Origin: an uncultured Gammaproteobacteria bacterium
GTDB lineage: Bacteria; Patescibacteriota; Patescibacteriia; SG8-24
Assembly: GCA_964486995.1 (NCBI GenBank)
Contig: CAZAOV010000019.1
Span: 1-21,538, forward strand
Direction of reading: 5' to 3'
DNA length: 21,538 bases
The position numbers and the translations under genes are program-made. Under the pieces are notes generated by a model. The model ran no database searches and was not told where the DNA came from. It saw only the letters and a program-made list of their open reading frames with translations. Positions 15,887 to 16,069 of this stretch are shown here, in pieces. How positions within the stretch are numbered: the first letter of the stretch is position 1; each line of letters opens with the position of its first letter.

Positions 15887-16069
15887 TTAGTCCCAGTTGG
15901 AACACCCCGTGCAGGAGCAGGGGTCGTTGTTGCAGTCGCTGGACTCAAAGCCTTCTCCGGACTTCATTTCTCGCGCCTGCTTCGCCGTCCGGGGCGCGGC
16001 CCTTCCGACCTGTTCCTCGCGTTTCCGCCAACGGTTGAACCGCTCGCGCATCGCGTTCTTTTCCTTCAT
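15887..16069 (-). CDS. Putative RiPP precursor peptide (60 aa) with a Cys-rich C-terminal core
   Basis: AGGAGACGGAG ATG. The translation is MKEKNAMRERFNRWRKREEQVGRAAPRTAKQAREMKSGEGFESSDCNNDPCSCTGCSNWD, a basic helical leader followed by an acidic, Cys-rich core with four Cys in the last 15 residues. It lies immediately upstream of and co-directional with the rSAM/SPASM gene. The 97-aa ORF in the track is trimmed to the SD-supported ATG. Confidence 0.6.
   Translation of the reverse strand: MKEKNAMRERFNRWRKREEQVGRAAPRTAKQAREMKSGEGFESSDCNNDPCSCTGCSNWD

Follow-up and report, generated by a model that had tools for sequence, protein, structure and literature searches.

Comparison with described radical SAM/SPASM systems

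The closest described counterpart of the locus reported here is the ACGX system, a computationally defined two-gene unit in which a short Cys-rich peptide (TIGR04341) accompanies an enzyme of about 340 amino acids (aa) that has radical S-adenosylmethionine (SAM) and SPASM domains (TIGR04340, rSAM_ACGX) and no recognition element for peptides that are made by ribosomes and modified after translation (RiPPs), known as an RRE. We analyzed the 21,538-nucleotide (nt) contig CAZAOV010000019.1 of GenBank assembly GCA_964486995.1, which is referred to over its whole length as the window, and found that it carries a comparable unit, with a gene for a 60-aa Cys-rich peptide lying next to a gene for a 345-aa radical SAM/SPASM enzyme. 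The peptides of both systems have a leader motif in common (N-aromatic-W ... S/T-A/V-Q-like), but ACGX peptides carry tandem ACGX repeats, whereas the window peptide has the single non-repetitive core DCxxDPCxCTGCSxWD, and a methyltransferase is co-conserved only in the subclade to which the window belongs. Judging from these comparisons, the window system is most likely a rare, unnamed Patescibacteria-type offshoot of the ACGX system and not a new kind of system. The 60-aa product is predicted to be the ribosomal precursor and substrate of the adjacent enzyme, a reading that draws on genomic context and homology and to which we assign a probability of roughly 0.8. Our literature search recovered no experimental study of the ACGX system, and searches on ranthipeptides in Patescibacteria and on TIGR04340, TIGR04341, and SbtM returned nothing on the system in the window.

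Other radical SAM/SPASM maturases resemble the window enzyme to a lesser degree. The ranthipeptide and sactipeptide maturases PapB, CteB, and SkfB likewise act on Cys-rich precursors, and PapB forms Cys-X3-Asp thioethers. A PapB-like spacing is present in the window core as C56-x3-D60, together with C46-x2-D49 and invariant Asp residues, but the CX3D arrangement of C56 and D60 is missing in members of the subfamily that end in CTGDDGD, CTGEE, or CTGD. The window enzyme also scores far below the cut-off of the PapB family model NF047865 (72.5 vs 340 bits), reaches 48 bits with the SkfB model, and is without the N-terminal RRE or other domain that PapB, CteB, and SkfB carry. SbtM, the maturase of SbtA, is also a radical SAM/SPASM enzyme, and it acts on Cys or selenocysteine (Sec) in a small-residue context by abstraction of hydrogen at C-beta (PMC9204691). 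In a Gly-Cys(Sec)-Gly context this yields a thio(seleno)oxazole, and a perspective article has likened the reaction to thiol oxidation by anSME (PMC9204691). SbtM is larger, however. It has 516 aa, of which about 190 make up an N-terminal extension missing from the window enzyme, which matches only model positions 196-503 and scores 206 bits against a cut-off of 350. The substrates differ as well: SbtA has Sec in a GGUG motif, whereas neither Sec nor a G-C-G motif occurs in the window peptide, whose frame is free of TGA and TAG. For its part, anSME (PDB 4K36-4K39) shares the minimal radical SAM plus SPASM architecture without an RRE and oxidizes Cys at C-beta, but its identity to the window enzyme is only about 18%, its model TIGR03942 gives 62 bits against a cut-off of 349, and it acts on a sulfatase that bears a C/S-x-P/A-x-R motif instead of on a small peptide of its own.

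A conserved small gene adjoins the radical SAM/SPASM gene

The two genes and the ribosome-binding site of the first are as follows:

15887..16069, minus strand: coding sequence of the putative 60-aa precursor peptide, conserved and profile-matched, with start codon ATG at 16069..16067 and stop codon TAA at 15889..15887
16076..16081, minus strand: Shine-Dalgarno (SD) sequence AAGGAG, 6 nt before the ATG at 16069
14776..15813, minus strand: radical SAM/SPASM enzyme of 345 aa (PF04055, 9e-20; PF13186, 9.5e-9)

The enzyme gene lies downstream of the peptide gene on the same strand, with 73 nt between them. A 60-aa peptide with an SD-supported start had been proposed at 15887..16069 in the original prediction, within a 97-aa open reading frame (ORF) reported by a mechanical ORF list. 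That list does contain such an ORF (15887..16180, minus strand, ATG start), and translation from the internal ATG at 16069 gives exactly the proposed product, MKEKNAMRERFNRWRKREEQVGRAAPRTAKQAREMKSGEGFESSDCNNDPCSCTGCSNWD. The coordinates hold, with the correction that the feature sits on the minus strand. The gene had also been described as missed and unannotated, which is true of the longest-ORF track used at the time and not beyond it, because the exact 60-aa protein is already present in a large predicted-protein collection, where it is listed for the NCBI contig (21,538 bp) as well as for one from JGI. That collection does not contain the 97-aa form.

The 60-aa boundary has three supports, namely the conserved position of the SD, the location of a conserved TTGACA sequence downstream of the ATG of the 97-aa form (see below), and in-frame stop codons found in five related loci (L002, L165, L167, L170, and L171) at a distance of 3-9 codons upstream of the start, so that the long form cannot be the conserved product. 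The first few residues are slightly uncertain in that translation could also begin at M7, although M1 is favored by where the SD lies and by the relatives. A profile built from the peptides of 11 relatives, leaving out the window and its 97%-identical twin, was searched against the 633 stop-to-stop segments of the window, and the window ORF matched with an E-value of 2.7e-25, while the next best segment had an E-value of 0.55. From the sequence comparisons we conclude that 15887..16069 on the minus strand is a genuine small gene and that its 60-codon form is real and conserved.

Loci containing relatives of the enzyme were fetched from genomes, metagenomes, and assembled runs, which gave about 160 orthologue loci. 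We define the subfamily as 12 related loci (L001-L003, L162-L167, and L169-L171; radical SAM enzymes 56-96% identical) plus the window, giving 13. The proposal that orthologous enzyme genes should be preceded by a short ORF with a CxxxxCxCxxC-like motif at its end was borne out in all 12 related loci, each of which has an ORF of 57-69 aa directly upstream of the enzyme gene. Close to its N-terminus the product has (F/Y)N(H/Y/R)WR, which is followed by P(R/H/N)(T/S) and, at the end, by the same core, DCxxDPCxCTGC(S/T)xWD-stop. The arrangement typical of the ACGX system, a short Cys-rich ORF with a homologous leader adjacent to the enzyme, is therefore seen in 13/13 loci. Some members depart from the usual ending: in L171 (4748..4930), P0139, P0142, P0147, and P0148, the last Cys and the WD ending have given way to the short acidic tails CTGDDGD, CTGEE, and CTGD, and the only part of the core that is universal across the subfamily is DCxx(D/C)PCxCTG.

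The family is small. At 90% identity it comprises 21 clusters in a set of 5.8 billion proteins, and at 50% identity 18 representatives in a set of 1.84 billion, all of them with the DCxx(D/C)PCxCTG core. Where database members are labelled they are named “hypothetical protein”, and where a source is named it is a Patescibacteria metagenome-assembled genome (MAG); the subclade is confined to MAGs with this label. Pfam and NCBIfam scans of the peptide gave no match, and a homology search with the single sequence recovered one 97%-identical twin only, the family itself surfacing through synteny-guided collection and profile searching. A metagenome scan with the alignment of the enzyme gave mostly distant gut relatives among the matches listed, of which L082 and L083 proved useful.

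The peptide has a separable leader and a core under purifying selection

Two regions of the peptide are distinguished by their conservation:

15890..15937, minus strand: core region D45-D60, DCNNDPCSCTGCSNWD, running up to the stop codon
15986..16039, minus strand: conserved part of the leader, F11-T28 (FNRWR ... APRT), a probable enzyme-recognition motif

The four Cys residues of the core (C46, C51, C53, and C56) form the pattern C-x4-C-x-C-x2-C. D45, C46, P50, C51, C53, T54, and G55 are invariant, and conservation reaches at least 90% at D49, C56, W59, and D60. In the leader, W14 is invariant, as are N12 and R15 in an alignment of 12 sequences, and conservation of P26 is at least 90%. The leader, which takes up the N-terminal two thirds of the peptide, is basic with a net charge of about +8, and the C-terminal 16 residues are acidic and Cys-rich. 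Across 55 sequence pairs, the mean proportion of synonymous differences (pS) in the core was 0.90 and that of non-synonymous differences (pN) 0.15, compared to 0.81 and 0.43 in the leader. All synonymous codons are in use at the invariant positions (D, C, P, T, and G), and Ser alternates between the AGY and TCN codon families. Between the window and L001, the 183-nt ORF shows six differences, four synonymous and two non-synonymous, and the 111-nt upstream extension shows eight, with four amino-acid changes. The core is under strong purifying selection at the protein level. The original prediction was to be abandoned if no short Cys-rich ORF were conserved upstream of orthologous enzyme genes, or if conserved synonymous sites pointed to a non-coding region; instead, the ORF is conserved and its synonymous sites are saturated.

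The view that leader and core can be told apart is supported by the wider family, in which the same leader is found with other cores. A short Cys-rich ORF adjoins the enzyme gene in nearly all of the approximately 160 orthologue loci, and the cores differ widely, with tandem repeats of the ACGSACGAGEK type in Bacteroidales, Methanobrevibacter, and others, CSCNCSSGCSAC-type runs in Clostridia, and SCGAGSCNCGGGCNGEC in other Patescibacteria. The subfamily profile, searched among 38,858 segments, matches the leaders of L082 and L083 at E-values of about 1e-8 and those of L010, L019, L057, and L066 at 2e-5 to 3e-3. L082 and L083, whose enzymes are 51-54% identical to that of the window, combine an FNHWRR...APRSV leader with a different core (DCGSGCSGGGCSGSGCGSSC; DCGSGCSGGGCSGSGCGSSCGSSCR), and in both the peptide gene (4059..4277 in L082, 2321..2542 in L083) lies downstream of the enzyme gene, still adjacent to it and with a methyltransferase gene also adjacent. 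Leader and core are thus separable modules, since the same leader carries different cores across ACGX-type peptides. Together with the position of the gene beside a maturase and selection at the protein level, this gives the locus the general features of a RiPP precursor gene.

The leader-core junction falls somewhere between about R33 and S44. It had been suggested to lie at two glycines numbered 39 and 41; these are in fact G38 and G40, and as about two thirds of members have the former and few the latter, we rejected them as a cleavage site for lack of conservation. Alignments of the family's peptides contained no conserved Gly-Gly or Gly-Ala cleavage site.

As a separate observation, enzymes of the TIGR04340 type with adjacent Cys-rich peptides (L002-L161) occur in gut Bacteroidales, Clostridia, Methanobrevibacter, Methanomassiliicoccales, Micrarchaeota, and Patescibacteria. 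The core types follow lineage, and those with CSCNCSSGC..., SCGAGSCNCGGGC..., or ACGSD repeats escape TIGR04341.

The enzyme is a borderline member of the TIGR04340 family

The enzyme opens directly with its SAM-cluster motif, C19-x3-C23-x2-C26, which leaves no space for an RRE domain at the N-terminus. These three residues are invariant among 24-27 homologues, as are the SPASM residues C259, C277, C313, C316, C322, C325, and C343 and the residue G272. The enzyme therefore has both the CX3CX2C motif and the seven-Cys SPASM set, corresponding to two auxiliary clusters, of a radical SAM/SPASM peptide maturase. By far the best NCBIfam model is TIGR04340, which aligns end to end with 382.5 bits (cut-off 400); with the same model, relatives from the subclade reach 360-407 bits, compared to 467-482 bits for canonical members. 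With this borderline score, the enzyme appears to be a fringe member of the family. The second-best model, in the window as in all relatives tested, is that of SbtM (TIGR04082), which covers residues 6-332 and whose score is twice that of the next family. An AlphaFold2 (AF2) model of the enzyme (pLDDT 86, pTM 0.86) had anSMEcpe as its best PDB match in a fold search, at full length and with TM scores of 0.69/0.65, followed by the peptide maturases SkfB, SuiB, PqqE, and ChlB. A sequence search of the PDB recovered SkfB only (E=5e-11).

A methyltransferase is co-conserved with the unit

Next to the enzyme gene is a third gene that is conserved in the subclade:

14122..14730, plus strand: class I SAM-dependent methyltransferase (Pfam Methyltransf_31/11/25), convergent with the radical SAM gene

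A methyltransferase of this type adjoins the enzyme gene in 8/12 related loci and in L082 and L083 (tblastn, E<=1e-5). The adjacent methyltransferases of L169 and L171 are more divergent and co-directional with the enzyme gene, while most loci have the convergent arrangement. Because adjacency is kept through this change of orientation, a functional linkage of the methyltransferase is likely. A single weak match, in L026, was found among roughly 155 other fetched loci. The PDB holds generic relatives of the methyltransferase, among which the RiPP methyltransferases BamL and LahSB match with weak E-values. The first canonical start codon of the gene is a TTG at 14209 (14209..14730), but the conserved N-terminus, QKWDSLYSKGAAYKP, lies 5' of the first ATG, GTG, or TTG, in 14122..14208. 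Homologues begin with M-(D/E)-T, and the window has ATC-GAA-AGT at 14122. The methyltransferase therefore probably starts at this ATC, which suggests a non-canonical start codon, a point mutation, or a sequencing error.

Expression signals around the peptide gene

Three elements bear on how the unit may be expressed:

16139..16144, minus strand: putative -35 box TTGACA, 75 nt 5' of the start codon and downstream of the ATG at 16180 of the 97-aa form
15828..15861, minus strand: terminator-like hairpin GAGGCG-(15 nt)-CGCCTC followed by T7 (stem 15835..15861, T7 15828..15834), between the peptide and radical SAM genes
16324..16400, minus strand: tRNA-Val(GAC), upstream of the peptide gene, with its own terminator-like site at 16297..16312; the sole Rfam match in the window

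As the upstream tRNA gene has its own terminator-like site, the peptide gene would need a promoter of its own. The seven closest loci (the window, L001, and L162-L166) have a perfect TTGACA between -72 and -98, which is inferred to work as a promoter element. The corresponding -10 sequence is CATACT in L001 and the poorer CGTGTT in the window. An SD resembling AAAGGAG or AAGGAG precedes the start by 5-9 nt and is clearly recognizable in 10/13 loci, whereas in L165, L166, and L171 it is degenerate. We also observed the sequence CCTTCAA at 16088..16094 on the minus strand, about 10-13 nt 5' of the SD, which is conserved in the window, L001, L162, L163, and L164; being complementary to AAGGA within the SD, this sequence could sequester the SD.

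The spacer between the peptide and enzyme genes is 59-94 nt long and contains a GC-rich hairpin in 13/13 loci, in 12 by a strict search and in L171 by minimum free energy (MFE) folding. In the 12 loci of the strict search it begins 13-27 nt past the peptide stop codon, and most of the hairpins are T-tailed. Its position is kept while its sequences differ, and the whole window spacer folds with z=-2.6. The hairpin looks like a leaky terminator or an attenuator. In lantibiotic and other RiPP operons, a leaky terminator past the structural gene leads to a surplus of precursor transcript, and here the peptide gene is probably expressed from a promoter of its own and a strong SD, while a leaky terminator would leave more peptide mRNA than enzyme mRNA. 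A consensus scan for promoters and terminators missed both TTGACA and the hairpin, because the -10 box of the window is weak and the hairpin loop is longer than 8 nt; custom scans found both.

Alternative explanations

A substrate of the adjacent enzyme is not the only form that a short Cys-rich product could take. It could be a small, stable metal-binding or redox protein, such as a Zn or Fe knuckle, that is the partner of the radical SAM enzyme or independent of it and that the enzyme leaves unmodified. Four closely spaced Cys residues accompanied by invariant Asp residues would suit such a protein, as would an N-terminal part less conserved than the core and the lack of a protease or exporter nearby. 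We nevertheless consider this improbable, because the leader recurs on unrelated, repetitive Cys/Gly/Ser cores (L082/L083, L010, L019, L057, and L066), and in the wider family on tandem ACGSACGAGEK repeats, which fits a substrate and not a folded metal site. Moreover, the fourth Cys (C56) is dispensable in some members, and the gene always adjoins one for a radical SAM/SPASM enzyme, the nearest relatives of which mature peptides or proteins.

Two further alternatives concern the gene itself, and we regard both as highly improbable. The true product could be the 97-aa protein starting at the ATG at 16180, with the 60-aa form merely an internal start, given that the frame is open from 16180 and that several relatives have long open upstream extensions, one of which was called as 94 aa by JGI. 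However, the upstream stops in five relatives are at odds with a conserved long form, the extensions of the relatives are dissimilar except for the translated SD, and an SD directly precedes the 60-aa start in most loci. The conserved TTGACA falls inside the extension, the window and L001 differ at eight positions in the 111 nt of the extension vs six in the 183 nt of the ORF (four of the latter synonymous), and the 97-aa sequence is missing from the protein collection. The region could alternatively be a non-coding or regulatory 5' leader of the enzyme gene, for instance an attenuation leader peptide of indifferent sequence, and the terminator-like hairpin between the ORF and the enzyme gene is what an attenuator would look like. 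Conservation of amino acids with saturated synonymous sites (0.90 vs 0.15 in the core) excludes a non-coding leader, and the switching of Ser codons between AGY and TCN, the lack of any Rfam match to the region, and the position of the homologous ORF downstream of the enzyme gene in L082 and L083 all speak against this explanation as well.

Proposed modification and points that weigh against a precursor

If the 60-aa product is the precursor of the adjacent enzyme, its leader (FNxWR...APRT) would most likely dock the peptide on the RRE-less enzyme, which would then most likely generate 5'-deoxyadenosyl radicals, abstract hydrogen from core residues, and remodel the cysteines. Two outcomes can be envisaged, both of which we hold only tentatively. 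One is oxidation at C-beta of Cys as in SbtM and anSME, the closest characterized relatives of the enzyme, giving for example a thiooxazole; this SbtM-like oxidation or heterocyclization would be favored by the homology of the enzymes. The other is the formation of thioether cross-links from Cys to Asp or Thr, which seems about equally possible and would be favored by the invariant D45, by D49 (at least 90% conserved), and by C56-x3-D60. In either case, the co-conserved methyltransferase probably methylates the product.

Several observations weigh against the interpretation of the peptide as a RiPP-like precursor. No protease, exporter, or immunity gene was found in the window or in the flanks of its relatives. 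The leader is less conserved than the core within the subclade, which is unusual for RiPPs, and the replacement of the fourth Cys and the WD tail in some members indicates that not all of the core is essential. The enzyme falls below the curated TIGR04340 cut-off (382.5 vs 400 bits), and TIGR04341 gave no match at E<=10 to the window peptide or to two relatives, although as controls the ACGSACG peptides of L037 and L035 matched at 34-41 bits (cut-off 28). In the window itself, the -10 box is poor, and the methyltransferase is without a canonical start codon at its conserved N-terminus. As there is no protease or exporter nearby, a cleaved and secreted product is not supported, and the product may stay attached to its leader or associated with the cell.

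Other features of the contig

The domain scan identified several further genes that are not related to RiPPs:

4668..5420 and 10807..11559, plus strand: two TrmB-family regulators
9561..10706, plus strand: T4 Rnl1-like RNA ligase
2445..3734, plus strand: YkuD L,D-transpeptidase with FG-GAP repeats
11903..13672, plus strand: 589-aa cadherin-like surface protein with three cadherin-like/Big_9 repeats

Further along the contig is a gene with similarity to the Major Vault Protein (MVP):

18588..21221, plus strand: 877-aa MVP-like protein (Major Vault Protein shoulder PF11978, 4e-17; Vault_3 repeat PF17795, 6e-11)

This protein has a long, coiled-coil-like C-terminus rich in Ala, Glu, and Gln, and it is unusual on a bacterial contig that is apparently of Patescibacteria. 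A gene for a DHH phosphoesterase borders the intergenic region next to it. Between these two genes are three copies of a direct repeat (17905..18213), with units of 69 nt and 18 nt and a spacing of 97-121 nt, the first two copies being 90-100% identical.

Significance

The TIGR04341 model misses whole branches of the substrates of the ACGX system, and the parent system is abundant in gut Bacteroidales, Clostridia, and methanogens. If our interpretation is correct, the window and its relatives represent a small, coherent, and unnamed family of precursors, of about 20 clusters among 5.8 billion proteins, with a dedicated radical SAM/SPASM enzyme and a co-conserved methyltransferase. With a single-core substrate of 60 aa and an enzyme of 345 aa, it would offer a compact model for the chemistry of the ACGX family. 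The hosts are bacteria of the candidate phyla radiation, whose reduced genomes keep few dispensable pathways. It is conceivable, although we consider it rather unlikely, that the peptide, the radical SAM enzyme, and the methyltransferase make up a distinct, Patescibacteria-specific RiPP-like pathway in which the DCxxDPCxCTG core is converted to a methylated, Cys-derived heterocycle or cross-link that is kept in or on the cell. Such a product, for which we propose mycofactocin and the thiooxazole metallophores as analogues, could be a metal chelator or a redox cofactor derived from the peptide and not a secreted antibiotic. A cell-retained pathway of this kind, if true, would represent new radical SAM chemistry in organisms with minimal genomes.

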